The notes: generated by a model not told the origin, from the letters alone. 64,000 nucleotides of DNA from Candidatus Saccharimonadales bacterium (GCA_035710125.1 DASTDY010000039.1:6848-70847); one strand, 5' to 3'. Shown: positions 8,692 to 44,959, counted from the stretch's first letter. Program-made: numbers and translations.

Positions 8692-8748
8692 CGGGGCCCG
8701 GGCAATCGCTCGGGCTCCAACCCTTTTTTATAATTGTAAACATGGAAC

Positions 8749-8784
8749 AGCCCAGACCCCTCAAGAAGGAGCCTGGGCTTTTTG
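8749..8784 (+). terminator. Hairpin plus T-run between the convergent 8320-8691 ORF and the P450 gene
   Basis: AGCCCAG (8749-8755) pairs with CTGGGCT (8773-8779), followed by TTTTT. Confidence 0.4.
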
Positions 8785-8799
8785 GAGAGCGGGTTATGT

Positions 8800-10083
8800 T
8801 CACGTCGCCCCTGAACTCGCCGGTTGCAGGCGCACCAGTGTGTTGAAATGACGGAAAGTCATGGCGTACACCATGCGGTTGTCGTTTGGATGCACTCGTT
8901 CCCAACTTTCGAACTGTTGCAGCATCTGCACCATGACCAGCGCGGTGAACACCCTGGCCATGTCTTCGCCGATGCACTTGCGCGCTCCCATGCCGAACGG
9001 CGCGTCCGACAGGCGGTCTTTACCGTGGAACGGTTCCCTGCGGTGCATCCCCAGAAGCGACACGAAGATATACGCGCCCTTTGGGATCAGCTGGCCGTCC
9101 AACTCAAACCATGGGTCGGCCTCTACGAACCTAAAGTACTGCGAGAACGACGGGTTGTCGTGCAGCACCTCTTGCAGGAACTCCTGGAGCAAAGGGAGAT
9201 GTGCAAGGTCTTCAAGGGTTGGCTGCCGGTTACCGATACGTTGTGCGATTTCGGCGCGTAGTTCGGCAAACCGGTAATCGGCGGCTGCGACCGCAATGCA
9301 GGCTTCCGACAGCCAGATTGCACTGCTGTCGAACCCCGCCATGACCGCGGTAGAAACTTGATTGTGCACTTGCGACCGTGTCAGCTTTTTAGACGCAATC
9401 AGTTTGCCGAGCAGGTCTTGTGGTTCAGAAGTATCGCCCGCAATGTGACGCTCGGCAATCTCTGCGGTGCGGGTGTCGATAATTTGGTACACCGCGCGGT
9501 CGAAGGCGGCTATTGCCCTCGCGTATTTGCGGGCACCAGGCACCCAGGCTGGCAGAAAAATGCGTTGCGCCATGCCCTCGAACACAGGGTTCACCAGGCG
9601 TACCAGCCCGCGCACTTGGCCGCCAGATGCGTGCGAACCAAACAGATGCTTGAGCAGAATCTCTAATCCGAGCTGCTTGAACTGCTCGAACAGATCGACT
9701 GTCTCTGGCCACTCGCGCAGCCGCTGGGCTGTGGTGCGGGTGGTCTCTTGTGCTACGGCTTGCATGGCCGCATGCGCGAACGCGGGGTTCATGAGCGTCC
9801 GCAGGGTTTTCCAGAGCGACCGGTCGGCGGTGGTGAATAGGCCATCTGGGCCTAGTGCCCGCGCGATCAGTCGGTAAATCCATCCACCCTTTGTGAGTTG
9901 GTTGGGTTGGTTGGTGACGGTGCGGACCAGATCTGGCCGCGTGACTACCCAGAACCGGCGGCCAAACGGCCACGGGAACGGAGCAAGGCCACCTGCACGG
10001 TTGCCAAGCCGTGCAATCTTGACCGGAACCTTTGCGAGCACCACTTCAAGCGGGCTACGACGGGGACGTTTGGTGTTGCGCAT
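8800..10083 (-). CDS. Cytochrome P450 (atypical; GC-rich cassette)
   Basis: Heme-thiolate loop FGMGARKCIG and I-helix-like MAGFDSSAIW. ATG at 10083 is preceded by CGAGGAGGGCAC (strong RBS), so I trim the 453-aa track ORF to 427 aa. Clearly more GC-rich than the adjacent MFS gene. Confidence 0.85.
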   Translation of the reverse strand: MRNTKRPRRSPLEVVLAKVPVKIARLGNRAGGLAPFPWPFGRRFWVVTRPDLVRTVTNQPNQLTKGGWIYRLIARALGPDGLFTTADRSLWKTLRTLMNPAFAHAAMQAVAQETTRTTAQRLREWPETVDLFEQFKQLGLEILLKHLFGSHASGGQVRGLVRLVNPVFEGMAQRIFLPAWVPGARKYARAIAAFDRAVYQIIDTRTAEIAERHIAGDTSEPQDLLGKLIASKKLTRSQVHNQVSTAVMAGFDSSAIWLSEACIAVAAADYRFAELRAEIAQRIGNRQPTLEDLAHLPLLQEFLQEVLHDNPSFSQYFRFVEADPWFELDGQLIPKGAYIFVSLLGMHRREPFHGKDRLSDAPFGMGARKCIGEDMARVFTALVMVQMLQQFESWERVHPNDNRMVYAMTFRHFNTLVRLQPASSGAT

Positions 10084-10164
10084 GTGCCCTCCTCGCTCTT
10101 CAGAAGAACGGCTGCGGCAAAAACCGCTGCGTGTCACAATAATACTGCCGATTGCAGCCAAAAA

Positions 10165-11466
10165 CTAGCTAGAAAGATAGTGGTGTGAAAGTTGGCGGTA
10201 ATATTTAGTGGCCATGGCACCAAAGGTTACCACCAATCCAATTAAGCCGGTGATCGTAAAGACTAAGGCAATACCTCTGTCTGCCCCAGTGCCGAACCAA
10301 CCGCCAATTAGTTCTACGCCAGCGCCGGTAGCCATAAAAGGGATAAACACAAATTGCGTAATAGGCCCGATTAAAAATGCGGTAAGAGGTGAAGCCGCTT
10401 GTTCTATACTTTGGGCAAAGCCAAACACCCTACCTTGGCGTTCGCGCGGCACCACCTTTTGAAGGATTGTTTGCTCTGACGCCTCAATAAACGGTGCGAG
10501 GCACAAATATGCGAACATACCAATCATTAGCAGTACAATAGATGACTGTAACGTAAACACCGAACTAACCGCCCAACAGATGATATTCGCCACAAATAAT
10601 GTTCGGAGCGGGTTTTTACCCAGGCCTTTTTTACTAATAATCAGACCGCCCACAATAAATCCAAGACTTAGCACGCCCCAGATTAAACCCCACGCCTCTA
10701 CAGATACCAGCGATAGGCCGTAGGCATCCATGAGCGCCATAAATACTCCGCCCAAAAAATTGTTGAACGTAGTGAATAAAATAAGCGCAAGTAGACCAGG
10801 AACGCTTTTTACTACTAAGAACGTGCCTTTTAGGTCTATCTTTTTATGGTCTTCACCGGTATGAACGATACCCTTTTCTGGGATTGCTATCCACCAGATG
10901 TGGGCTATGGCCGCTGCAGTAACCACCAGGGCTAGAATAAGCACGTACCATAGTCCGGCCAGCCCTACCAAGAATCCGCTAATAACAGAGGTGACTAAGA
11001 ACGATACGCCAGAGGACGCGCCGATCAGTCCGTTAGCTTTGTCTCGCTTTTGCTCAGGGATAAGTATAGTAACGGTGGTAGGGAGCGCAATCATGCGTAT
11101 GTTGCCAGCCATTACTCCAGTCATTAGGCACAACACTAGTGCCCACAAGGTTACACTAGACGGCTCTTTAAACGTGTCGGGCGCTGCGGTAGAGTATATT
11201 GCTAAACTTATGGCGTAAAATACTAAAGATACTACGCTCGACCACATCATGACTGGTTTCTTTTTATAGTGGTCAACAATGCTGCCGAACCAAATGCCAG
11301 ATAGAGCAGTGGCGACTAAATACACGCCCGAAATCATTCCTGTTGCAAACACCGACTGCGTTTCAAGGTATACATAAAAGGTGATTGCAAACCACACTGT
11401 AAAGTTAATAACAGATACCGTTAAGGTATTGGCTAAAATATGGTAGAACGCGGCTAGATGAGTCAT
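10165..11466 (-). CDS. MFS transporter
   Basis: 433 aa, about 12 predicted TM helices, typical MFS layout. Confidence 0.8.
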   Translation of the reverse strand: MTHLAAFYHILANTLTVSVINFTVWFAITFYVYLETQSVFATGMISGVYLVATALSGIWFGSIVDHYKKKPVMMWSSVVSLVFYAISLAIYSTAAPDTFKEPSSVTLWALVLCLMTGVMAGNIRMIALPTTVTILIPEQKRDKANGLIGASSGVSFLVTSVISGFLVGLAGLWYVLILALVVTAAAIAHIWWIAIPEKGIVHTGEDHKKIDLKGTFLVVKSVPGLLALILFTTFNNFLGGVFMALMDAYGLSLVSVEAWGLIWGVLSLGFIVGGLIISKKGLGKNPLRTLFVANIICWAVSSVFTLQSSIVLLMIGMFAYLCLAPFIEASEQTILQKVVPRERQGRVFGFAQSIEQAASPLTAFLIGPITQFVFIPFMATGAGVELIGGWFGTGADRGIALVFTITGLIGLVVTFGAMATKYYRQLSHHYLSS

Positions 11467-11469
11467 GTA

Positions 11470-12186
11470 TTAAAATCGGCCAATGTCTATCCGTACAAAA
11501 ATTTCGGCGTACGTACAGCCACAGATCTCTCCACCCTGCGTGGCGAACTTTGTAGCCACAGATGTATCTAGGTTTTGGCTAGTGTGCGCCCGCAGTGCTT
11601 GTAACTTAGTGTCGAACATATCTGTAATATCTACGCCAAAGTTGTGCTGTGTAATATTTACCAGCAATACTGTGCTTACGTTATGGGGTTGCAGACCCTT
11701 TTTTAGTTGGTCTGGGAACGCCAAGTGGTCGCGAGCTAAAGGGTATACGGCATCTAATACCGCTTGTCCGGCAGCGCGGTGGTCGGGGTGGTTGATAAGC
11801 CCAAGCTCGGCCACGTATATGACTGTAGGGTCTAACGAAACTACTGTATCTGGTTTGAGATGTCGGATAAAGGCAACTATATCGTGCTTTAGGCGGGTGT
11901 TGTTTTCTAGCTCGCCATCTGGATAGGTCATAAAAAAGACTTTTTTAACACCTAAGATTTTAGCTGCTTCACGCTGTTCTTGCTGACGGGTTTTTATAAG
12001 TTCGTCCACATTGGTATGGGGGTCGTTACTGCCCTTGCTGCCATCTGTAAGTACTAGGTAATACACCTCACAGCCGGCTTTCGCCCATTGTGCAGCTGTG
12101 CCGCCAGCAAAAAAGTCCATGTCGTCGGCGTGCGCACCTATAAATAGGGCAGTTTTGGGGGAAAGTTCATGTGTATCTTGATCCAT
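11470..12186 (-). CDS. PIG-L / LmbE family deacetylase
   Basis: 238 aa. IGAHADDMDFFAGG and INHPDHRAAG zinc-binding motifs. Confidence 0.8.
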   Translation of the reverse strand: MDQDTHELSPKTALFIGAHADDMDFFAGGTAAQWAKAGCEVYYLVLTDGSKGSNDPHTNVDELIKTRQQEQREAAKILGVKKVFFMTYPDGELENNTRLKHDIVAFIRHLKPDTVVSLDPTVIYVAELGLINHPDHRAAGQAVLDAVYPLARDHLAFPDQLKKGLQPHNVSTVLLVNITQHNFGVDITDMFDTKLQALRAHTSQNLDTSVATKFATQGGEICGCTYAEIFVRIDIGRF

Positions 12187-12320
12187 TGATTCTATTCTAC
12201 TACTGTTTTGGGGTGTAATAAACTATTGATCTTTTTATAGTTTTAGTATATAATATATTTCAGCGTCAAGGTTTGAGATACAACCTCCCGCATGAACCTA
12301 CTACCCCGAGGGGATCGAAG

Positions 12321-12944
12321 ATGTCGATCAAGAAGGTTACTGCTCTGCTCGCACTGCTCGCCGGCCTCACCGCTTGCAGCAAGGTGAGCGGCATGGCCAC
12401 GCCGGCCTCGTCGTCTGCGGAAGCGCCCATGGTCACCACGACCACCAGCGCTCCGGCCACGTCGTCGTCGGTGCCGACCTCGACACCCAGCTCCACTCCG
12501 TCCACCACGGCGTCGTCGGTGAACCCGATGTACGACCTGGCAGACCCCAAGATCGTGCTGCCGGCTGCGATCATCGCTGAGCACACCCGCAACAACTCGA
12601 TCGGGCTGCTGGAGCCGACGTGCACCACCGAGGCCAAGGAGTACGACGAGCGGTCCTGCACGCACATGGGTCACACCGTGACCGTGGTGGTCACGACCTA
12701 CGTCGACCCCACGGGCGTGAAGTTCAACGATCTGATCCTGGAGGCCAAGAAGACCGGCGACTACATTCCGTTCGTGAACTTCATGGACGGCGCGGCGCAG
12801 GCATTCTTCTCCAAGGGGCAGAACCCCGAGTCGATCACGCTGTTCACCAAGAACGTGGTCGTCAAGATCGAGCTCAAGGGCTTCAAGATCACCATGGCCG
12901 CGCTCCAGGAACTGGCGCGCAACGTGGTGGCCAGACTGGCCTGA
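12321..12944 (+). CDS. Lipoprotein with Ser/Thr/Pro-rich linker (GC-rich cassette)
   Basis: ATG at 12321 is preceded by GAGGGGA. Lipobox LLAGLTAC, then a TTTSAPATSSSVPTSTPSSTPSTT linker. A sampled 60-nt stretch is 73 % GC. The 286-aa antisense ORF is an Arg/Gly-rich shadow. Confidence 0.7.
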   Translation: MSIKKVTALLALLAGLTACSKVSGMATPASSSAEAPMVTTTTSAPATSSSVPTSTPSSTPSTTASSVNPMYDLADPKIVLPAAIIAEHTRNNSIGLLEPTCTTEAKEYDERSCTHMGHTVTVVVTTYVDPTGVKFNDLILEAKKTGDYIPFVNFMDGAAQAFFSKGQNPESITLFTKNVVVKIELKGFKITMAALQELARNVVARLA

Positions 12945-12993
12945 GCACGTACAAGTAGTAGGCGAATCGTGTGGACACCGTAAGGTGAACGCC

Positions 12994-13022
12994 GGCCCCT
13001 TCCGCATTCCGCGGTCGGGGCC
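12994..13022 (+). terminator. GC-rich hairpin 3' of the lipoprotein cassette
   Basis: GGCCCC (12994-12999) pairs with GGGGCC (13017-13022), with an inner CCGC/GCGG pairing. Followed by ATTTGCTTTT. Confidence 0.4.
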
Positions 13023-13067
13023 ATTTGCTTTTATAGGGATATTTTTGGCTTGTATGTTGTGCTGTGC

Positions 13068-13101
13068 GGCCGTGTACCCAGGTTCTACTAGGTACACGGC
13101 C
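13068..13101 (-). terminator. Perfect 11-bp hairpin 3' of the 13112-13696 cassette
   Basis: GGCCGTGTACC (13068-13078) pairs with GGTACACGGCC (13091-13101). No U tract. Confidence 0.45.
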
Positions 13102-13111
13102 ATGCAGCGCG

Positions 13112-13810: not shown

Positions 13811-15283
13811 ATGAGTTTTTTTAACAGACTTTCAAAGTTTATTGGCGAATACGAAGCGGTCGCCTTTATCTCGGGCTTTGCCCTTATGGCGTATGAGTTA
13901 GTTGCGTCGCGCATTTTAGCGCCGGCAATCGGTAGTTCCATTTACGTGTGGACTAGTGTTATTGGGATTATGATTGCCGCACTTGCTATAGGTTATGCCG
14001 CGGGCGGCTGGCTGGCCGATAAGCGTGTTGCCACCCAAGACATTGCCTGGCTGCTCATTGCGAGCGCAGTTGCCATGGCAGGAACGTTGTTATTTTATGA
14101 ACCAATTCTTTTTATAATCGGCAGCTTCATACAAGACCAACGCCTCCAAGGGATTGTGGCGGCGATCACGCTGTTTATGCCGGCAAGTTTTTTGCTGGGT
14201 ATGATCAGTCCGTATTTAGCGCGGCTGCGAGTAAAATCGGTTACTACTACCGGTAGGTCGGTTGCGGGTTTGAGCGCGCTTAATTCGATCGGTGGCATTG
14301 CAGGTACATTTTGTGCAGGATTTATATTTTTTAGCCTGATTGGCTCGCGTGAGACGCTCATTTTATTGGTTGTGCTCTTGCTGTGTGCCAGCTGGCTGGT
14401 GGCGCCAGGCCACAGGGTGCAGTGGCGCGCGGCGGTTACCGCAAGCTTAGCTATAACGATTGTGCTGCAGTTTGCATCGCAGGCACATGCGCGGACAATC
14501 GCTACAATTGATACCCCTACTGCGCACTACAATGTGCAAGAAACACGGTACAACGGCCGGCCAGTGCGTGTGCTCACGACCGACCCTTATTCGTACCAAT
14601 CTGGTATTTATACTGATGGCTCTAAAGATATTGTGTTCGATTACGCCAAACGTATTGCCGAACTTACTAATGCCGCGCCGCGAAAAGATAAAATTGCAAT
14701 TTTAGGCGGTGGTGCGTTCACATTGCCAGAGGCGCTCGGCAAAGCATATCCGCAATCACAGATAGACGTGGTAGAGATTGACCCTCAGTTGCCTGAAATC
14801 TCTAAGAAGTATTTTAATTATGACCAACCGCCCAATGTCCGCGCTATTGGCCAAGATGCCCGGGTATTTTTACGCGAAGCCGCCGCAAACCAGTACGACC
14901 TCATTATTGTTGACGCTTACGGCTCTGATACGTCAATCCCATTTGCCCTCACGACACGCCAGTATGCAGCCGAGCTAAAGCGTGTTGCTAAGCCAGACGC
15001 AACAATGGTCATTAATATTGCCGCTGGCACGGCAAAATCGTGTGAGCCATTTTTAACCAGCGTCATGGGCTCGTATGCGGCAGCATTTGCAAACCTGCAG
15101 TTGTTTCCTGCTAACCATGAGTATAAGGGAGAGCGCCAAAACTTGATCGCAGTCGCCTCTAATGAGCGCCTTGATTGGGTGCAGCCATTCGGGCTGTTTA
15201 TGTCTATAGACCTTGCCAAGGCAGTTCCTTTAACAGACAATCACGCTCCCACCGAACCTTTAGCCCAACAGTGCCGCAAATAG
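13811..15283 (+). CDS. Membrane-fused spermidine/spermine synthase-like aminopropyl/methyltransferase
   Basis: 490 aa. About 7 N-terminal TM helices, then a Rossmann-type domain with ILGGGAFTLP, VVEIDPQL and DLIIVDAYGSD. Confidence 0.65.
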   Translation: MSFFNRLSKFIGEYEAVAFISGFALMAYELVASRILAPAIGSSIYVWTSVIGIMIAALAIGYAAGGWLADKRVATQDIAWLLIASAVAMAGTLLFYEPILFIIGSFIQDQRLQGIVAAITLFMPASFLLGMISPYLARLRVKSVTTTGRSVAGLSALNSIGGIAGTFCAGFIFFSLIGSRETLILLVVLLLCASWLVAPGHRVQWRAAVTASLAITIVLQFASQAHARTIATIDTPTAHYNVQETRYNGRPVRVLTTDPYSYQSGIYTDGSKDIVFDYAKRIAELTNAAPRKDKIAILGGGAFTLPEALGKAYPQSQIDVVEIDPQLPEISKKYFNYDQPPNVRAIGQDARVFLREAAANQYDLIIVDAYGSDTSIPFALTTRQYAAELKRVAKPDATMVINIAAGTAKSCEPFLTSVMGSYAAAFANLQLFPANHEYKGERQNLIAVASNERLDWVQPFGLFMSIDLAKAVPLTDNHAPTEPLAQQCRK

Positions 15284-15382: not shown

Positions 15383-16378
15383 ATGGAACCCCAAGCAGCC
15401 GTACCCACAGAGCCGACAGTGAAGCCACAACAAGAAGACACTGATATTTTTGCTTGGGCGAATAATTTGTTTTTATATAAAGAGCAGTTGCAGGTAGAAC
15501 TGTTCTTGCTGAACAAAAACAATATTATGTACAGAACGCGTTACGCTGAAGGCTTGCAGCGCCAGCTCCACGCCCTTTTTATAGATAGCATTTTAGAGTT
15601 TGTAATAACCGGCGCCGGCCAAGGCCTTGTGGTGCGCGGTTTTGAAGACGCCGAAAGTGAAGAAAACGTCTTGCAATACACCCAAGTAAAAAATGTAGAA
15701 AAGCTGGTAGATGCCATGAGCTGGCTTGGCGCCCAAGAACGCGAAATGGAGACATTTGTAGAAGAAGACCACGATCTTAAGCGTATTAAAGCTGTGGTCG
15801 CCCGTTGTGCCCACAAAGATTTGCCCCAGCCGTTTTATGTAATTAAGGCATTGTCGCAGGCGACGGTTTTAAAGTCGGTGGGTGCGTGGTCTATAACCGG
15901 CAGCAAGTTTGAGCCGCTCGACAACGGCGCAGCACTGCGGATCCCTGCCGATAACCAATTGCTTATTGTCAACGACGAGCTATTTGTATTTAACCAATCT
16001 AAGCTTGAGCGCCTATTTGGGTACAACGCCAAAAAGAACGCTATCGCCGAAAAGAAAGTACGGCAAATAGAAGCCAATTTTCAGCTCAGCTTTGCCGACG
16101 ACCAAACCTTGCAGTCTATGGTAAAAGAAAGTAAGACAACTATAAACAAACTGCAAAAATTAGATCCCAGCGCTGTAAAACAAGAAGACCTATTGAACCA
16201 TGCAGAAGAACTCGGCATAGAACTTATGCAAGACGAAGCCGGTGCCATAATTATTATGAATCCAGCCGACCTCAGTAAATTTGTAAACTTGTTGAACGAC
16301 GACTATGTGGAATCTAGCCTTACTGGTTTGCGCTATGAAATAAAAAGTAAAAAACTTCTAAAGCCGGTTGAAGAATAG
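15383..16378 (+). CDS. DUF4868 / KwaB-like protein (Kiwa defence component-like), solo
   Basis: 331 aa and soluble. Size and segments such as LLIVNDELFVFNQSKLERLFGY and the C-terminal NLLNDDYVESSLTGLRYEIKSKK match my memory of the DUF4868 family. Not verified by search. Confidence 0.45.
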   Translation: MEPQAAVPTEPTVKPQQEDTDIFAWANNLFLYKEQLQVELFLLNKNNIMYRTRYAEGLQRQLHALFIDSILEFVITGAGQGLVVRGFEDAESEENVLQYTQVKNVEKLVDAMSWLGAQEREMETFVEEDHDLKRIKAVVARCAHKDLPQPFYVIKALSQATVLKSVGAWSITGSKFEPLDNGAALRIPADNQLLIVNDELFVFNQSKLERLFGYNAKKNAIAEKKVRQIEANFQLSFADDQTLQSMVKESKTTINKLQKLDPSAVKQEDLLNHAEELGIELMQDEAGAIIIMNPADLSKFVNLLNDDYVESSLTGLRYEIKSKKLLKPVEE

Positions 16379-23052: not shown

Positions 23053-23388
23053 GTGGAACAGTCCAATAGATATGACCATGAAGAGCGCTATAAAGACAGC
23101 GCGGACGTACTCGCCCACGAGGCAGAGATTGCCGAGATCGATGCCCAAATTATGCGCCTATGGCAGCGCCGCAACGAGCTTGCCCGCCTTGTGGCAGCTA
23201 TCCGCCGCAAGTCAGGCAGGCCGGCCAACCCTTATAGCGAAGAGCTTAGTGACCGCAGTCGGTTTGTGCATCGCGCCCAGGAGCTGGGGGTGTCCCGTGC
23301 CTTAGGTGGTGAGGTGATAGACCTGCTCACAAAAGCGGCCCATAAACCTTTGCCGCCCACTAATCCAGAGACTCAGGCCGGCCAGTAA
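23053..23388 (+). CDS. Small chorismate mutase (AroQ)-like helical protein, possibly degenerate (GC-rich)
   Basis: 111 aa with a GTG start. AEIAEIDAQIMRLWQRRNELARLVAAIRRKSG resembles the AroQ N-terminal helices, but the first catalytic Arg position reads Glu. By-eye alignment only. Confidence 0.3.
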   Translation: MEQSNRYDHEERYKDSADVLAHEAEIAEIDAQIMRLWQRRNELARLVAAIRRKSGRPANPYSEELSDRSRFVHRAQELGVSRALGGEVIDLLTKAAHKPLPPTNPETQAGQ

Positions 23389-24022
23389 ACCAATCACGTA
23401 CCAACTGCTGTTGTGGTAGGCCGGCTTGCAGCAGTGAACCGCCAATTTCATCGACCATAGCGCTCGGCCCCGATACATATACTACGCGCTGCAGTGCATT
23501 TGGTAACGCTAAAATCTGGCCAAGCGTTGGCCTGCTGGATTGTTGCTGTACAGAAAATCCAGCGTGCGCACGTGCAAGCTGCCGTAGCTCGTGCCCAAAA
23601 ACTGCATCAGAACGTGAGCTATATATAAGGTGGGCGTTTAGCGGCAGCCGCTTATGGCTACGGTCCGTTGCCATTGCGTAAAAAGGAGTAATGCCAATGC
23701 CGGCAGCCACCCAGATGTGGGGTAAGGTCGATTCACGCCATGTAAAATCGCCATCAACCGCAAAGGCGCGCACCTCTGTACCTGGTTTGAGCGAAAAGAG
23801 CTTTTGCTTATAGGAGCTTTCGCTATTACGAGTGGTTATCTCTATAACACCTTTGTGCGGATGGGCAGAAATAGTAAAGCGATGCTCTAGCGGCCCATAG
23901 GTGCCAGGCACTTCGATTTTAATTGACTGCCCTGCTATCCAGCTTGTTTTTTGTAGGGGCGCAAAACTAAGCGTCGCAACATTATGTGAACGCCATGCTA
24001 TGCTTTTATACAGAAGTTGCAT
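23360..24022 (-). CDS. FNR-type FAD/NAD(P)-binding oxidoreductase
   Basis: Trimmed to the ATG at 24022 (MQLLYKSIAW...). HRFTIS (RxYS-like FAD motif) and AAGIGITPF (NAD(P) motif). The upstream 217 aa of the 438-aa track ORF are antisense to the tail-fibre-like gene. Confidence 0.65.
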   Translation of the reverse strand: MQLLYKSIAWRSHNVATLSFAPLQKTSWIAGQSIKIEVPGTYGPLEHRFTISAHPHKGVIEITTRNSESSYKQKLFSLKPGTEVRAFAVDGDFTWRESTLPHIWVAAGIGITPFYAMATDRSHKRLPLNAHLIYSSRSDAVFGHELRQLARAHAGFSVQQQSSRPTLGQILALPNALQRVVYVSGPSAMVDEIGGSLLQAGLPQQQLVRDWFTGRPESLD

Positions 24023-24113
24023 ACATAATATTGTACGTTTTAATTGCGTTTCTGTATGCAAAAGCTTACTATGTAACCAAGGTAAACATAAACAATATAA
24101 TTTATATACATAT

Positions 24114-24860
24114 ATGAGTAGATTGCCAATACCAGGGTCAGACGACGGTACATGGGGAGATGTTCTAAATGACTTTTTGTCGATAGAACATAACAGCGAC
24201 GGAACGCTTAAAGCTGGCGGATCGCTCGCTGCAAAAGCAAGCTCATCAATAACAATATCAGCCGGCACCGGTTTGACAGGCGGCGGTGACCTTTCTGCTA
24301 ACCGTACGCTCACTGCAAACTTTGGCACTTCCGCCGGAACGATTGCCCAGGGTAACGATTCCCGCATAACAGGCGCAGAGCAAGCCGCCAATAAAGGTGC
24401 GGCCAACGGATACGCGAGCCTAGACTCTGGCAGCAAGCTCCCAACCTCGCAGTTGCCACTGCATGGCTCTACCCATGCCTCTGGCGGGAGCGACCCCGTT
24501 ACCCTACGCCTAATGTTGCCAACTTTTACTAAAAATGGCGTGTTGTTTACAGATACTGGCACATTACGGCTACCCATGGATGCCTCGTATACTGTTATTG
24601 GCGTCCGCCTTATGGTGGGAACTGCACCGACTGGCGCGAGCGTTATTGTAGACGTCAACAAAAACGGTACTACCATCTTTACTACACAAGCTAACCGCCC
24701 TACTATTGCTGCTGGCGCTAACGCTGGCGGCCCAGGCGCAGCCCCTGATGTAACCTCACTTGTGGCTGGCGACTATATTACTGTAGATATCGACCAAGTT
24801 GGATCAACCGTAGCCGGCGCAGACCTAACAGTCTCTATCATTGTAGACAGAACCTCTTAA
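24114..24860 (+). CDS. Phage tail-fibre-like surface protein
   Basis: ATG at 24114. MSRLPIPGSDDGTWGDVLNDFLSIEHNSDGTLK N-terminus, GGGDLSANRTL and GYASLDSGSKLPTSQLP motifs, as I recall from phage tail-fibre / minor tail proteins. Confidence 0.6.
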   Translation: MSRLPIPGSDDGTWGDVLNDFLSIEHNSDGTLKAGGSLAAKASSSITISAGTGLTGGGDLSANRTLTANFGTSAGTIAQGNDSRITGAEQAANKGAANGYASLDSGSKLPTSQLPLHGSTHASGGSDPVTLRLMLPTFTKNGVLFTDTGTLRLPMDASYTVIGVRLMVGTAPTGASVIVDVNKNGTTIFTTQANRPTIAAGANAGGPGAAPDVTSLVAGDYITVDIDQVGSTVAGADLTVSIIVDRTS

Positions 24861-24862
24861 GC

Positions 24863-27148
24863 ATGGCCCAGTTAAACAATTCAACCCAGTTCACTGCCCC
24901 TGGCAACTCTGCGAGCTTTAACGTGACAGTTCCGTCTGTTGCAGCTGGCGCCAAGCTGGTGTGCGTTACGTATGGTGGCGCGATCGTCACGGCGTCTATT
25001 AGCGGAAATGATTTTACAAAACGTACCCAATCGCTTAGCTCACTAGAGGTTGTGTGCCAGGACATCGTAGCGGCAGGTGGAGAGACTACCGTCGCTATAT
25101 CGCTTAATGGCGCCGAAAACGTAAGTGGTGTCATTTTTGAGTTCGCCTCTGGATCGCTTGGCGCATTCATAAATGGCGCAGCAAACAGTGGGACGCTCGA
25201 CTCGCAACAGCAAGGCTCTGCGGGTTCAATTGTTACCACTGGATCAGCTGTTATTTTTAGCGCATACGCTGTTATAGATACTACCACCGCTGCGGCGCGG
25301 CGCTGGTGGGGATTAGAGCCAGTAGGCAAGGTTGTGCTTAACGCGCATAATAATAATGTTGGGGCAAACAAGTTTTGGGGGCAGGTTGGCGTATCTGATG
25401 TGTCTGGCGCAGGTACCTATACTTCTGTAAGTGGTCGGGCCTTGGGTAGTAACTACCAGGCAGCCGCTTGGGCATATGCTGATTCGTCGGGAATCCCAAC
25501 GTATGCTAATGTGTACCCGAACGCAATTGCCGCCGAAAACTCCTTGCCTGGATCAGTGTCGACAAGCTGGTATGGGGCGTTTGCAAATGCTAACATCGCT
25601 GGATACACAGATAAGATTTCTTATGCGCCGGGCGATACAGTTAACTTTAAAGTAAACTCAAATAATATAGGCTTCGGAGTAGAAATTACCCGTGTTGGTT
25701 TTTACAATTACGTAAACTTTGGCGGCAAGCGCAAGGCATCTGTTACAGGGACTCCAGCGGTGCAGGCTGCCCCCACAATAGACTCATACGGCGGCACGGT
25801 TTGTGCTTGGTCTACAACTGCAACATGGACGATTCCTTCTGATGCTACGCCTGGGGTATATGTTGCAAATGCCCGTCGGACCGATAACTCGGCGTTTGTA
25901 TCGCAAATGGTATTCTTGGTGCGCAGCCCTGTTCCTTCCTCTAAGAGCAATAAGATCATGTTAAAAATATCTGATTTTACCTGGAACGCATATAACTTGT
26001 GGGGCGCCTTTGGCGAGGCTGGTGGTATCGGCAGCTATACTGGCCGCAACCTATATAGGCAGGCACCGGCAGGCACTGTAGCGAGCCGAGCATTCGCTGT
26101 GTCGCTCGACAGGCCGCTCACTGTGGTTGATACCCAATCGCAAACTGCTTTTGAAGACTCCGAAATTAGCCTAATAAACTTTTTAGAGGGAAACGGTTAT
26201 GACGTGGCGTACTTTTCTTGCGCCGACATAGACAAAGACCCCACTATTCCGTCTAAATTTAAAATTGCTATCTCTTCTGGACACGACGAGTACTGGTCTT
26301 TAAACATGTACAACGCCTTTGCGAATGCCCGTGACGCTGGCACTCATCTTGCCTTCTTTTCTTCTAACACGGCACTGTGGCGCGTGCGGTTTGACGGAGC
26401 AGACACTGAGCGTCGCAAGATGATCTGCTATAAGGATTCGCATGACACTACCGGATACGACAACACCACAAAGTACGACCCTGTAGAATATACTGGCACA
26501 TGGCGCGATTCTCGCACAACCGTAGGCGGCGTGAATAACCCTCTGCGCTTGCCTGAATCCGGCTTGCAGGGACAGTGGTTCATTGCTAATGGCCCACAAA
26601 ACCAAACTATTGTTGTGCCCGATACGTATAAAGACATGCCGATTTGGCGCAATACCACAGTCGCATCGCTTGGCTCGGGCGCCTCGGAATCTCTGTACAC
26701 TGGCTCACTGGGATATGAGCTTGACTATGTTAAAAGAAATGAGTCCACAACGCCTAAGAATCTAGTCCTACTTAACGAGCAAGATTTAACACTCACCGGC
26801 CAAGCAGCCAACGATAACGGCGATACGTATACGGGCAACGGTACCTTTACTTTTGGAATGTCACTATATATGGCTCCGTCAGGGGCGCTGGTATTTTGCG
26901 CTGGTACATGGCGCTGGGGCTGGGGTATTAGCCGCTTTAGGGGCGCGAACGCCGATGTAAACGGAAGCGTAAACATAACAATGCAGCAGGCTACCATTAA
27001 TTTGTTCGGCGATATGGGCGTTCCGCCTCCAGCCTTGCTGTCTACGTTGTCTAACAATGATGCTACTGCCCTGGTTGATCCAGGCGCTGAGCGCACCCCC
27101 CAGGACTATGGCTTATCGGTTCCTATGTGGGGCCAACAAATGTTCTAG
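24863..27148 (+). CDS. N,N-dimethylformamidase beta-subunit-like family protein with an extra N-terminal domain
   Basis: 761 aa, starting 2 nt after the stop of the previous gene. AENSLPGS...W, FTWNAYNLWG, SSGHDEYWS, FFSSNTALWRV, GYELDYV and FCAGTWRWGWGIS line up with segments of the Methylobacterium DMFase large subunit as I recall it. Confidence 0.65.
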   Translation: MAQLNNSTQFTAPGNSASFNVTVPSVAAGAKLVCVTYGGAIVTASISGNDFTKRTQSLSSLEVVCQDIVAAGGETTVAISLNGAENVSGVIFEFASGSLGAFINGAANSGTLDSQQQGSAGSIVTTGSAVIFSAYAVIDTTTAAARRWWGLEPVGKVVLNAHNNNVGANKFWGQVGVSDVSGAGTYTSVSGRALGSNYQAAAWAYADSSGIPTYANVYPNAIAAENSLPGSVSTSWYGAFANANIAGYTDKISYAPGDTVNFKVNSNNIGFGVEITRVGFYNYVNFGGKRKASVTGTPAVQAAPTIDSYGGTVCAWSTTATWTIPSDATPGVYVANARRTDNSAFVSQMVFLVRSPVPSSKSNKIMLKISDFTWNAYNLWGAFGEAGGIGSYTGRNLYRQAPAGTVASRAFAVSLDRPLTVVDTQSQTAFEDSEISLINFLEGNGYDVAYFSCADIDKDPTIPSKFKIAISSGHDEYWSLNMYNAFANARDAGTHLAFFSSNTALWRVRFDGADTERRKMICYKDSHDTTGYDNTTKYDPVEYTGTWRDSRTTVGGVNNPLRLPESGLQGQWFIANGPQNQTIVVPDTYKDMPIWRNTTVASLGSGASESLYTGSLGYELDYVKRNESTTPKNLVLLNEQDLTLTGQAANDNGDTYTGNGTFTFGMSLYMAPSGALVFCAGTWRWGWGISRFRGANADVNGSVNITMQQATINLFGDMGVPPPALLSTLSNNDATALVDPGAERTPQDYGLSVPMWGQQMF

Positions 27149-42432: not shown

Positions 42433-43656
42433 TTACAGTTTATTTTGTACTTTTTTAACGATGCTGGCGACGGCTTCTTTATACTTTGCAAGCCGTCCAA
42501 TGCTGCCTAAGCTTAGGTTTTGCGCATTAAACGCGTTCCGTTGTAGATACGTTGCGAGCAGGTTGTAAAATGTGCTCAAATCACCGCGCCTTAACCATTC
42601 GTTTGCCCCATGCATGTCCCCACCTTCGGGGTAGATGATTGCGGTCGGAATGTTGAGCGCAGCAAAATAGCGGGCATCGCTCGCACCTAATGCCTGCGTG
42701 AACTCAACTGGCTTTTGCCGTACATCGCTAAGCGCGGTTAAAAATTCCTGCACTAACGGACTCTCTTCTAAAAGGTGTACGGGCGAATCATGGAGGCTTA
42801 CTTGCACTCGCAGCCCATGCTGCGCTGCGACCTGCTCAATAAACCGGAGCGCGGTTTCTAGTTGGTGGTTTTCGAAGGCACGGACGCTAATCCCGGCTTT
42901 TACCCACGCAGGTGTTTGGGTAGAATTTATGGCACCGCTGTTTGTAGATTGCAGGGTATTTATGCTTACGACTGTCCCGTTAGGGTCGTCATTCGGAAAA
43001 TGGTCTATGATTTTTTGGAGCGCTGGCAAGAACTGAGGCAGCGGGTTTTTACCTTCCCAAGTCCTTGAGCTGTGCGCACTGAGCCCTTCGGCCTTTAGGT
43101 ACACGTATAATAAGCCCTTGGCCCGTTGCTCAACCTTCCAGTCGCGCCCACCATCGGGCACAATGGCTAGGTCGCAGCGCCAACCTTTTTGTAAAAAATC
43201 TAGGGCGCCATCGCGGCCGCCACGTTCTTCGTCGGATGTAATAAGAATGCCAAAATCGTACGCTGCGAGCGTGTCTTCGGCGGCTAAATCCTTTACTAGC
43301 TCGTGCGCGACTGCTGCGGCGAACTTCATATCTATGACACCGCGGCCAAAGATTTTATCGTCGGCTATTCTTATAGTAAAGTGCGCGTCGTCGGCTGGCG
43401 ACACAACGTCGAAATGAATAACTAGCAATATTTTTACCCGTTTTGTGGATTGCGCCTTTGGGTTTGCAGTTGCGATAAGCCAAGGGTGCGCGTTTTCTTC
43501 TACGTGCACCGCCATGCCCAGGCTTACGAATTCACTGGCCAGTGCCTTAATTGCATCGCTATTAGCAATAAGGTCGTTAGAATCTGTTGGCATGGCAACA
43601 AAGCGCCCCAATGTGGCTTCTAACCGAGATTGCAATGCTTTGTTTTGGCTGACCAT
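42433..43656 (-). CDS. M20 family metallopeptidase (ArgE/DapE-like deacylase)
   Basis: 407 aa. LLVIHFDVV and ITSDEERGG metal-binding motifs. Confidence 0.75.
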   Translation of the reverse strand: MVSQNKALQSRLEATLGRFVAMPTDSNDLIANSDAIKALASEFVSLGMAVHVEENAHPWLIATANPKAQSTKRVKILLVIHFDVVSPADDAHFTIRIADDKIFGRGVIDMKFAAAVAHELVKDLAAEDTLAAYDFGILITSDEERGGRDGALDFLQKGWRCDLAIVPDGGRDWKVEQRAKGLLYVYLKAEGLSAHSSRTWEGKNPLPQFLPALQKIIDHFPNDDPNGTVVSINTLQSTNSGAINSTQTPAWVKAGISVRAFENHQLETALRFIEQVAAQHGLRVQVSLHDSPVHLLEESPLVQEFLTALSDVRQKPVEFTQALGASDARYFAALNIPTAIIYPEGGDMHGANEWLRRGDLSTFYNLLATYLQRNAFNAQNLSLGSIGRLAKYKEAVASIVKKVQNKL

Positions 43657-43768: not shown

Positions 43769-44182
43769 TTACGCGACTTCGACAGATGCGCCAGCTTCTT
43801 CCAAAGCTTTTTTGGCGGCTTCGGCGTCTTCTTTGCTGACTTTTTCTTTGATTGGGCTTGGGACGTTGTCTACAAGGCCCTTAGCTTCGCCTAAACCAAG
43901 GCCGGTAAGCTCTTTAACAGCCTTAATAACGGCTACTTTTTGGGCGCCAGCGTCTTTTAGGGTAACGGTGAACTCAGTCTTTTCGTCTGCAGCAGCGGCA
44001 GCGCCATCTGCGGCTGGGGCAGCGGCAACAGCTACAGCTGGAGCAGCAGCGCTTACACCCCAGTATTCTTCTAGGAATTTAACGAATTTACTGATTTCTA
44101 GTGCGCTCATTTTGTCTAGTTCGTCAACGAGTTTTTTGAACTCGGCTGGAACTTCGACAGTTTTCTTCTCTTCTTCTGCCAT
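43769..44182 (-). CDS. rplL: 50S ribosomal protein L7/L12
   Basis: 137 aa. Ala-rich hinge and [19 protein letters not shown]-terminal domain. Confidence 0.95.
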
Positions 44183-44207: not shown

Positions 44208-44741
44208 TTAGTTTTCCAAAGCCTCGGCGCGGGCGTTCAAGACGTTTAATACGCCACGGACGTTGCCGGCCAGTACATTGACGAAACCAGATAGCGGTGC
44301 AGCAATAGTGCCAACCAACATACCACGGAGCTGGTCCTTGGTGGGAAGGCTTGCAAGTGCTTTTACGTCTGCCTGTTCCATTAATGTGCCTGCTGCGTCT
44401 ACGGCGCCAATTAGCTGTAGGGCGTCATGCGTTTTAGCAAATGTTGCCAGAACTTGCGCTGGGGCGACTTCGTCGTCGGCGCTCATGGCGTACAGCAACT
44501 GGCCCTTCATTAGGCTAGTGTCGACGTCTTTTAGCTGCTCTGTTTGCGACATTGCAACGCGAACCAGGCGGTTTTTAACCACTTTAATGGTCACACCTGA
44601 TTCACGGGCAGCACGGCGTAAGCTTTGGAGTTCTTTTACAGTCAACCCTTGGTACTGTGCAAATACCGTAAGCTTAGCGGCGCTAAGCAGTCCGGCAAAT
44701 TCAGCAACCTGGGCTTCTTTTGTCTGGCGTGAAATTGCCAT
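44208..44741 (-). CDS. rplJ: 50S ribosomal protein L10
   Basis: Start at the ATG at 44741 ([12 protein letters not shown]...), 177 aa. Immediately upstream of rplL. Confidence 0.9.
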
Positions 44742-44924
44742 AAAGACTCCTTTTTTACTAGTGTTTGGCCAGATTGTTAAGGTGATCCGAGTTTGCAAAG
44801 GCTACAAAAAAGAGTCTTTGATTCTCGCATTACCAAAGACTCTTGCAGTGAGATAACAAATTTTTATGTCATTCCTCGGTAGCGGATTAAGCCCTTAGGC
44901 GGCTACTGTCTGTGGTAATGTTCG
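44742..44924 (-). promoter_or_regulatory. rplJ 5' leader with attenuator hairpin (L10-leader-like)
   Basis: On the - strand, AAGAGTCTTTG (complement of 44834-44844) pairs with CAAAGACTCTT (complement of 44810-44820), followed by TTTTTTG. This sits inside a ~180-nt leader between the predicted promoter and the rplJ RBS. Confidence 0.5.
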
Positions 44925-44930
44925 CTTTGA

Positions 44931-44959
44931 AGTATATATAAGTATTGTCTTTGTGTCAA
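44931..44959 (-). promoter_or_regulatory. Near-consensus sigma70-type promoter for rplJL
   Basis: On the - strand, TTGACA (44959-44954), 17-nt spacer, TATACT (44936-44931). Confidence 0.55.

Follow-up and report, generated by a model that had tools for sequence, protein, structure and literature searches.

An atypical cytochrome P450 gene beside an LmbE-type deacetylase gene in a Candidatus Saccharimonadales genome

The ERR (Glu-Arg-Arg) triad is generally held to stabilize the heme pocket of cytochromes P450, and a protein of the CYP157 family was nevertheless reportedly found by Rupasinghe et al. in 2006 to be a real hemoprotein, CYP157C1 reportedly being impaired when ExxR was restored. 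In the CYP157 family of Streptomyces the consensus ExxR is reported to be absent, with EVLW or EQSLW in its place (PMC3599690). Here we describe a P450 gene of similarly altered motif state in a 64,000-nucleotide stretch of DNA from a Candidatus Saccharimonadales bacterium (GCA_035710125.1 DASTDY010000039.1:6848-70847), the whole of which we call the window. The gene lies on the minus strand, side by side with genes for a major facilitator superfamily (MFS) transporter and a PIG-L/LmbE-family deacetylase (here LmbE). Our reading, to which we give a probability of about 0.55, is that it encodes a genuine, maintained P450 from a rare clade of actinobacterial type in which the ERR triad has been eroded, that it was gained horizontally, that LmbE is its partner, and that the enzyme would carry out an oxidation with scavenged heme. 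GenBank already labels the gene "cytochrome P450", so that its existence was known; what we add is how unusual its motifs are, which clade it belongs to, which gene is its conserved partner and how rare it is. A literature search returned nothing specific on P450s in the Candidate Phyla Radiation (CPR) or Saccharibacteria, or on LmbE-P450 pairs.

The initial annotation placed the stretch in the CPR, which is borne out by the genes around the P450. The P450, MFS, PIG-L, orf123 and FNR-like products are exact matches to HET9411578-81 and HET9411594 of a Candidatus Saccharimonadales metagenome-assembled genome (MAG; third-party annotation, TPA) on a 92-kb contig, and the window holds backbone genes for BipA, DnaB, DnaX, RecR, CysS, ThyA, DHFR, DHPS, L1/L10/L11 and NusG. 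Glycosyltransferase genes are numerous in it, and one N-terminal methylation motif is of pilin type. As listed, the three open reading frames (ORFs) run from 8800 to 10161, 10165 to 11466 and 11470 to 12186, with the P450 frame opening at a TTG at 10161; we take the ATG at 10083-10081 as the start, and the NCBI annotation pipeline PGAP gives the identical 427-aa product (HET9411579.1).

A P450 with an altered K-helix and a shortened meander

The product belongs to the P450 family: with the Pfam profile PF00067 it scores 122.5 bits, where the cut-off is 22.8 (E=2.7e-35), and the match takes in positions 43-434 of 462. The heme-thiolate loop FGMGARKCIG and the I-helix motif AGFDSS, called unambiguous at the outset, stand at residues 363-372 and 249-254, and the C-helix WxxxR is also present. 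An alignment of 21 clade members shows no variation at G250 or S253 and hardly any at D252. By its sequence, the protein keeps every feature needed for holding heme and activating O2, and because the Cys loop, WxxxR and the Asp-Ser pair are all retained it can be argued to be a heme-thiolate, O2-activating monooxygenase.

The K-helix is where the protein departs from the consensus. HMMER alignment pairs its EVLH with the ESLR of CYP46A1 and with the K-helix of CYP102L1, the clade alignment sets it opposite the ESLR of a Nonomuraea homologue, and none of the alignments checked offers an alternative canonical ExxR at the K-helix position. The replacement of Arg by His, first read by eye, therefore holds in proper alignments. 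The distance from Glu305 to Cys370, estimated in the same annotation at about 65 residues, measures 65, whereas relatives of full length, with LERF or SGRF still in place, have 77-81. The HMMER and family alignments both show about 14-19 residues of the meander to be missing, the PERF-type motif included, and compared with full-length relatives the region is shorter by 12-16 residues.

An AlphaFold2 (AF2) model has the P450 fold (predicted template modeling score, pTM, 0.76), and with it Foldseek retrieved 1519 P450 chains of the Protein Data Bank (PDB) at E<=0.001, the top ones at template modeling (TM) scores of 0.70-0.77 and a probability of 1.00. Over residues 347-371, which take in the meander and the Cys loop, the predicted local distance difference test (pLDDT) falls below 50. 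We considered this as a sign of a malformed, truncated region and dropped the idea, since a control model of P0002, a relative with a full meander, shows the same drop. The low confidence is therefore an alignment-depth effect and is uninformative on the truncation.

A profile search of 1.84 billion representatives placed the protein in a clade that, clustered at 50% identity, comprises about 25 clusters scoring above 250 bits, against a generic P450 plateau of about 200 bits. Motifs were tabulated for the 21 aligned members. At the fourth position of the K-helix motif, 11 of the 21 have His and five have Arg, the rest having K, Q, A, A and E; at the first position only seven of the 21 have Glu. 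Spacing from the Glu position to the Cys is 77-81 aa in 12 members, 65-66 in the window protein, P0001, P0003 and P0008, and 49-57 in five others. Throughout, AGxDST, FGxGxRKCIG and the C-helix WxxxR are retained. From these motif states we conclude that the clade has relaxed the ERR triad while keeping the heme-ligating and O2-activating residues, and that ExxH, far from being private to the window gene, carries the commonest residue at that position. The five shortest members (P0012, P0014, P0017, P0019 and P0020) all keep the Cys loop; P0014 retains the K-helix Glu, whereas the other four are without both Glu and Arg. Their 49-57 aa spacing indicates that truncation of the meander has been repeated or progressive. 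Four long, seemingly fused matches (P0015, P0024, P0027 and P0028), looked at for redox domains, proved to be tandem P450 domains only.

Orthologues are very rare, in line with the initial annotation, which held P450s to be very rare in CPR genomes. Two word-indexed searches of 5.8 billion clusters found only P0001, P0003, P0008 and P0002, a scan of 185,579 species-representative genomes had Nonomuraea as its sole match, and two metagenome contig scans returned no relatives. The named clade members are all Actinomycetota (Nonomuraea and Actinocatenispora), and P0002 sits on a contig of 70% GC. Identity to the window protein is 37-39% for four Nonomuraea species, 37-42% for any actinobacterial protein, about 41% for P0003 and P0008 (the P450s of contigs L008 and L013), and 22-24% for P0004-P0007. 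Genes for transposases, PhoD and TPR proteins surround the actinobacterial relatives, and none of these neighbors is conserved. Nonomuraea sp. NPDC049141 has two copies of the homologue (L002 and L003), and that of N. aurantiaca (L004) is flanked by DDE transposases, which suggests that the actinobacterial homologue is mobile.

Selection, probable horizontal origin and the LmbE partner

Purifying selection acts on the gene. L007, assembled independently from a different sample, matches positions 10235-5477 of the window at 89% nucleotide identity and carries the 3' end of the MFS gene, the P450, orf123, GH5, orf75, orf182 and a glycosyltransferase; a second contig from the same sample (L018) has PIG-L and MFS and breaks within the latter. 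Together they reproduce in a sister strain the order PIG-L, MFS, P450, orf123, GH5. Between the window and L007 the P450 shows nonsynonymous and synonymous divergences (dN and dS) of 0.029 and 0.33, giving a dN/dS of 0.086, with neighboring genes at 0.036-0.10, and P0003 compared with P0008 gives about 0.19. Four independent loci have an uninterrupted reading frame, so the check for a disrupted ORF that had been called for comes out in favor of a maintained gene. The spacer between MFS and P450 is about 95% identical in the two strains as against 89% over the whole aligned region. Low dN/dS, a conserved ribosome-binding site and spacer, and synteny in the sister strain together indicate that the gene is neither a relic nor a chimera.

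These data bear most directly on the idea that the gene is a decaying, non-functional remnant of a horizontal transfer that has lost ExxR and PERF. It is true that two signature motifs are missing, that the meander is truncated, that orthologues are extremely rare and that the composition is foreign. However, the frame is unbroken in all four loci, dN/dS at a dS of 0.33 is like that of housekeeping neighbors, selection also appears in the P0003/P0008 pair, the ribosome-binding site and an upstream box are conserved, and the His at the Arg position is no private lesion. We consider decay very improbable.

In composition the gene stands apart, as the initial annotation had noted. The P450 has 59.7% GC and a GC content at third codon positions (GC3) of 0.69, against 46-48% and 0.46-0.48 for PIG-L and MFS, in a window of 50.8% GC. 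The GC-rich block extends from about 8200 to about 10100, has sharp edges and takes in the convergent orf123. The P450s of L013 and L008 have GC3 values of 0.70-0.72, and across the three loci the flanks lie at 0.44-0.54. The GC3 contrast and the actinobacterial relatives support horizontal acquisition, and the gene was most likely gained from a donor of actinobacterial type, direction and donor both being read from sequence. Saccharibacteria are known epibionts of Actinobacteria (PMC6031116), an association with which, in our view, such a donor fits. The phylogeny proposed for finding the donor clade gave a partial answer: the named relatives are all Actinomycetota, but no donor is singled out, and a neighbor-joining (NJ) distance tree does not place Nonomuraea as the sister group of the Saccharimonadales-type subclade.

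Sharp edges and actinobacterial relatives would also be expected if an actinobacterial fragment had been misjoined to a Saccharimonadales contig during assembly or binning. Against such an artefact, L007, from another sample, has the same two junctions at 89% nucleotide identity, the P450 is no closer than 37-42% to any actinobacterial protein, and backbone genes lie on both sides within the 64-kb window. We give a misjoin next to no weight.

Orf123 matches the P450 in its high GC content and runs toward it, and the two may have been co-acquired. Orf123 is absent beside the P450 in L013 and is not conserved at other P450 loci. It also evolves much faster, with 72% amino-acid identity to the sister strain against 94-96% for its neighbors and a dN/dS of 0.30, and is followed by a strong terminator at 8693-8718. 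The hairpin between the two convergent genes, of which L007 keeps the stem despite substitutions in both arms, is probably a bidirectional terminator. On the other side of LmbE, at 12243-13103, lies a second GC-rich block (62-67% GC) with a gene at 12273-12944 (+) for a probable Ser/Thr/Pro-rich lipoprotein (signal peptide, lipobox LTAC) and a long spurious antisense ORF. With PIG-L and MFS (46-48% GC) sitting between two such blocks, the region is a compositional mosaic.

LmbE, rather than the transporter, emerges as the conserved neighbor. On L013, a 2.6-kb contig, only 73 nt separate the end of a PIG-L gene from the P450 downstream, which leaves no MFS between them, and the PIG-L fragment, the last 124 residues, is 66% identical to residues 115-238 of the window LmbE. 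On L008, a 1.6-kb contig, a PIG-L C-terminus lies about 150 nt upstream of the P450, again with no MFS between; the upstream flank closes with '...CGTTYAETFVRLDVDRF*', matching the C-terminus of PIG-L. No PIG-L gene occurs within 10 kb of the actinobacterial-type P450 loci L001-L006. MFS homologues of about 70% identity are found in unrelated contexts with neither LmbE nor P450. A target-site duplication marking insertion of the MFS gene was sought at the 3' ends of LmbE and MFS, and none convincing was seen.

A further element accompanies the P450. A box with the consensus AGTATTATTG-NN-ACACGC lies 45-55 nt before the ATG at all four P450 loci with upstream DNA (the window, L007, L008 and L013; L014, which begins too near the P450, is not counted). 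The 18-nt box AGTATTATTGNNACACGC occupies 10129-10146 (-) in the window, 94-111 in L007, 153-170 in L008 and 394-411 in L013. It is kept whichever gene precedes the P450, the remaining spacer does not align, and the window has no second copy of the box; of 19 loci compared, only the P450 loci contain it. Its retention despite a differing upstream gene argues against simple read-through and for a control element specific to the P450, probably a promoter or operator. A pyrimidine tract (TTCTTCT or CTCTTTT) complementary to the Shine-Dalgarno sequence follows the box. Folding of the P450 leader RNA gave z-scores of -1.1 to +0.6 and a consensus of eight pairs with one compensatory change, which lends no support to a riboregulator.

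Because LmbE adjoins the P450 without an MFS gene in L013 and L008 and the upstream box is shared, we regard LmbE, box and P450 as the conserved unit; the MFS gene was either added in the window lineage or lost from the other. The initial annotation needs revising here, since in it the P450 had joined the 3' end of a pre-existing LmbE-MFS operon as part of a co-transcribed, three-gene modify-and-export unit. Much of that description stands. The genes are co-oriented, the gaps are 3 nt (LmbE-MFS) and the predicted 81 nt (MFS-P450), the spacer has only a weak 5-bp stem, and the strong ribosome-binding site is as described. Likewise, the arrangement is preserved in the sister strain, and the backbone-like GC of MFS and LmbE beside a GC-rich P450 also speaks for it. 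As the spacer is without a good terminator, read-through from MFS may still occur. What is not borne out is "appended": two loci have LmbE directly upstream with no MFS, MFS homologues live elsewhere without either partner, and the P450 has a conserved box of its own, with a -10-like hexamer, behind any preceding gene. An appended operon is, in our estimation, unlikely.

The source annotation names the transporter "DHA3 family multidrug efflux", and its NCBIfam matches, Mef(A) and EntS, are distant. Homologues 65-73% identical occur in Saccharimonadales MAGs and in Pseudonocardia (65-67% there), often beside glyoxalase/bleomycin-resistance (Ble)-like genes, which suggests a resistance-type efflux gene common to Saccharimonadales and Actinomycetota.

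Heme, redox supply and proposed function

The window offers little to support a P450 with cofactor or electrons. Pfam scans of its larger ORFs found no family of heme biosynthesis, heme uptake or the respiratory chain, and a Cys-motif search of its plausible genes found no ferredoxin, rubredoxin or heme c motif, in line with the earlier remark that no ferredoxin is visible. The FNR-like gene named there as the only candidate redox partner is a real gene, but it lies 13 kb off and nothing ties it to the P450. A 438-aa ORF at 23360-24676 (-), entertained as a membrane ferric-reductase-like partner, is over-extended, and the real gene is the 220-aa FNR-like one. In soil Saccharibacteria a heme-dependent cytochrome bo3 oxidase has been described and heme scavenging proposed (PMC6031116, PMC8407418).

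This setting could suit a protein that has the P450 fold and is not a classical monooxygenase with redox partners, being instead peroxide-driven, of isomerase type, or a heme-binding, heme-buffering or sensor protein in a heme auxotroph. No ferredoxin or dedicated reductase is near, much of the clade has lost the ERR triad and the meander, both belonging to the proximal face, and the organism presumably cannot make heme, to judge from a related soil Saccharibacterium (PMC6031116). Many bacterial P450s, however, take redox partners encoded elsewhere in the genome. Moreover, the known peroxygenases (CYP152) and isomerases (CYP74) are without the I-helix acid-alcohol pair, unlike this clade, in which the O2-activating D252-S253 pair is conserved throughout. 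Such a non-classical role strikes us as rather improbable.

We favor instead an oxygenase that works with LmbE. Since the pairing is conserved, the two proteins may tailor or detoxify one N-acetylated compound of the N-acetylglucosamine (GlcNAc) type. In this model, the substrate of LmbE would be N-acetylated, of GlcNAc type or otherwise, and in part hydrophobic; a glycolipid from the host or the envelope, or a metabolite of actinobacteria, would qualify. LmbE would strip off the N-acetyl group, and the P450 would oxidize the same compound or its aglycone. Its heme would be scavenged from the host or the environment, and its electrons would come from a non-dedicated donor encoded elsewhere. 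In the window lineage the DHA3 transporter could then export the product or a toxin. That the substrate has a hydrophobic moiety is a weak hint, taken by analogy from nearest structures of lipid type. Heme loading, catalytic activity and co-regulation of the P450 with its neighbors are, likewise, predictions.

Several points weigh against the favored account. Both Arg residues of the ERR triad are gone from the window P450, and a single change in the meander can inactivate a P450, as in human CYP4B1 P427S (PMC12233900). The AF2 model is uninformative for meander and Cys loop, heme binding and turnover are predicted, and the substrate is a guess, with nearest structures at most 23% identical. 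There is no ferredoxin, flavodoxin, heme-uptake or heme-synthesis gene in the 64-kb window. On the side of origin, the NJ tree does not pin the donor clade, a single ancient transfer does not explain high GC3 across P450s that are only 41% identical, and L008 and L013 are assigned taxonomically only by inference, on the lower GC of the flanks and an LmbE of 66% identity.

The boldest version of the proposal, in which the LmbE-P450 cassette is specific to Saccharimonadales and encodes a working, ERR-less oxygenase that runs on host heme and acts on a host N-acetylated or glycosylated lipid or an antibiotic, is one we hold as a tentative and somewhat doubtful possibility. If true, no functional P450 system would have been described from the CPR before it, and nature would have supplied a case of a P450 that functions with neither Arg of the triad and with an incomplete meander. 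An O2- and heme-dependent enzyme under purifying selection in an ultra-small epibiont genome would imply heme scavenging and exposure to oxygen. It would also imply a specific small-molecule interaction, probably with the actinobacterial hosts that are the apparent source of the gene. With a conserved LmbE-P450 pair and an upstream box to work from, heterologous expression offers a direct test of the hypothesis.

Mapped features and comparison with described systems

Table 1. Features mapped in and around the P450 locus (window coordinates)
Feature	Coordinates	Strand	Evidence or remarks
Cytochrome P450 coding sequence, 427 aa + stop, without ERR triad	8800-10083	-	Pfam, Foldseek, dN/dS; HET9411579.1
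DHA3-type MFS transporter, 433 aa, HET9411580.1	10165-11466	-	Pfam MFS_1 E=1.6e-28
PIG-L/LmbE-family deacetylase, 238 aa, HET9411581.1	11470-12186	-	Pfam PIG-L E=1.8e-32
MFS-P450 spacer, 81 nt, no convincing intrinsic terminator	10084-10164	-	Sequence, terminator inspection
Shine-Dalgarno GAGGAGGG, 3 nt before P450 ATG	10087-10094	-	Kept in L007 and L013
Upstream box AGTATTATTGTGACACGC, with TATTAT -10-like hexamer	10129-10146	-	Core identical in L007, L008, L013
I-helix motif A249-S254 AGFDSS, acid-alcohol pair D252-S253	9322-9339	-	Sequence, family alignment
K-helix codons E305-V-L-H308 at ExxR position, Arg to His	9160-9171	-	HMMER and family alignment
Truncated meander M346-A361 MHRREPFHGKDRLSDA, PERF-type motif absent	9001-9048	-	Alignment gaps, Glu-to-Cys spacing
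Heme-thiolate loop F363-G372 FGMGARKCIG; Cys370 codon 8974-8976	8968-8997	-	Cys invariant in 21-sequence alignment
GC-rich hairpin and flanking A/T run, between convergent P450 and orf123	8749-8783	.	Stem kept in L007
orf123, hypothetical, HET9411578.1	8320-8691	+	GC3 0.73; dN/dS 0.30; no family hit
FNR-like oxidoreductase, 220 aa, HET9411594.1	23360-24022	-	BenC/Hmp-reductase-like FAD/NAD domains, no Fe-S domain

Elsewhere in the window, a KwaB-like protein (PF16162, Kiwa defense) is encoded at 15383-16378 (+) and is preceded at 13811-15283 (+) by a 490-aa membrane protein with a spermidine-synthase domain, a pair also found in L018. A 761-aa product at 24863-27148 (+) has a C-terminal domain like that of the N,N-dimethylformamidase beta subunit (PF20254, E=2.7e-75), unexpected in a reduced genome. 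An Rfam gathering scan returned only the L10 leader (RF00557) at 44797-44933 (-), directly upstream of ORFs of a size that would suit rplJ and rplL (44208-44798 and 43769-44182); the gene that follows is an M20 peptidase at 42433-43656 (-), not rpoB.

Comparison with described deacetylases leaves LmbE at the level of its domain. The PIG-L match (PF02585) is 113 bits against a threshold of 28.2, and the best NCBIfam models are BshB1 (104 bits against a cut-off of 182.5) and BshB2 (81.5 against 195), with Mca and MshB likewise below their cut-offs. Scores so far under the equivalog cut-offs do not allow the protein to be assigned to bacillithiol or mycothiol metabolism.

The structures nearest to the P450 are CYP184A1, CYP97A3/C1, CYP102 (BM3) and CYP46A1, which share its overall fold; the best sequence matches in the PDB reach E=3e-15. 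Their substrates are lipids, carotenoids or sterols. They differ in having a canonical ExxR and a full meander, and are only 16-23% identical. Membership of a CYP family calls for at least 40% amino-acid identity (PMC3599690), and as identity to CYP46, 97, 102, 120 and 184 is below that value the protein belongs to an unnamed family.

The orphan P450s of Nonomuraea and Actinocatenispora (L002-L006 and P0011) are of the same clade, are 37-39% identical over almost their whole length, and share the signatures NPAF, PVFxGMA, AGFDST, FFRNV, RKCIGE and YAMT. Nonomuraea L002 differs in its canonical ESLR, its xxGRF (SGRF) meander motif and a Glu-to-Cys distance of 79 aa, while Actinocatenispora P0011 has AVLH with a spacing of 78 aa. 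The neighbors of Nonomuraea L002 and L004 are transposases and unrelated genes, with no PIG-L within 10 kb.

The closest parallel in motif state is CYP157, where a bacterial P450 of actinobacterial type has likewise replaced the K-helix Arg and kept the Cys-ligand loop. The replacement is Trp there and His in the window protein, and in the clade of the latter the meander with its PERF motif is shortened as well. In the PDB and NCBIfam, the window protein is matched best by CYP46/102/97/184-like and pentalenene-oxygenase-like P450s rather than CYP157. Its conserved neighbor is a PIG-L deacetylase, whereas CYP157 genes lie downstream of a conservon (cvnA-D); scans of the neighbors in the window, L001, L002, L004, L007 and L013, not aimed at cvn families by name, gave no family match suggestive of one. 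The clade forms a natural series on the role of the ERR triad, in which the K-helix residue runs through H, R, K, Q, A and E and the spacing from 49 to 81 aa around an intact Cys loop, and this variation extends past the single precedent of CYP157.

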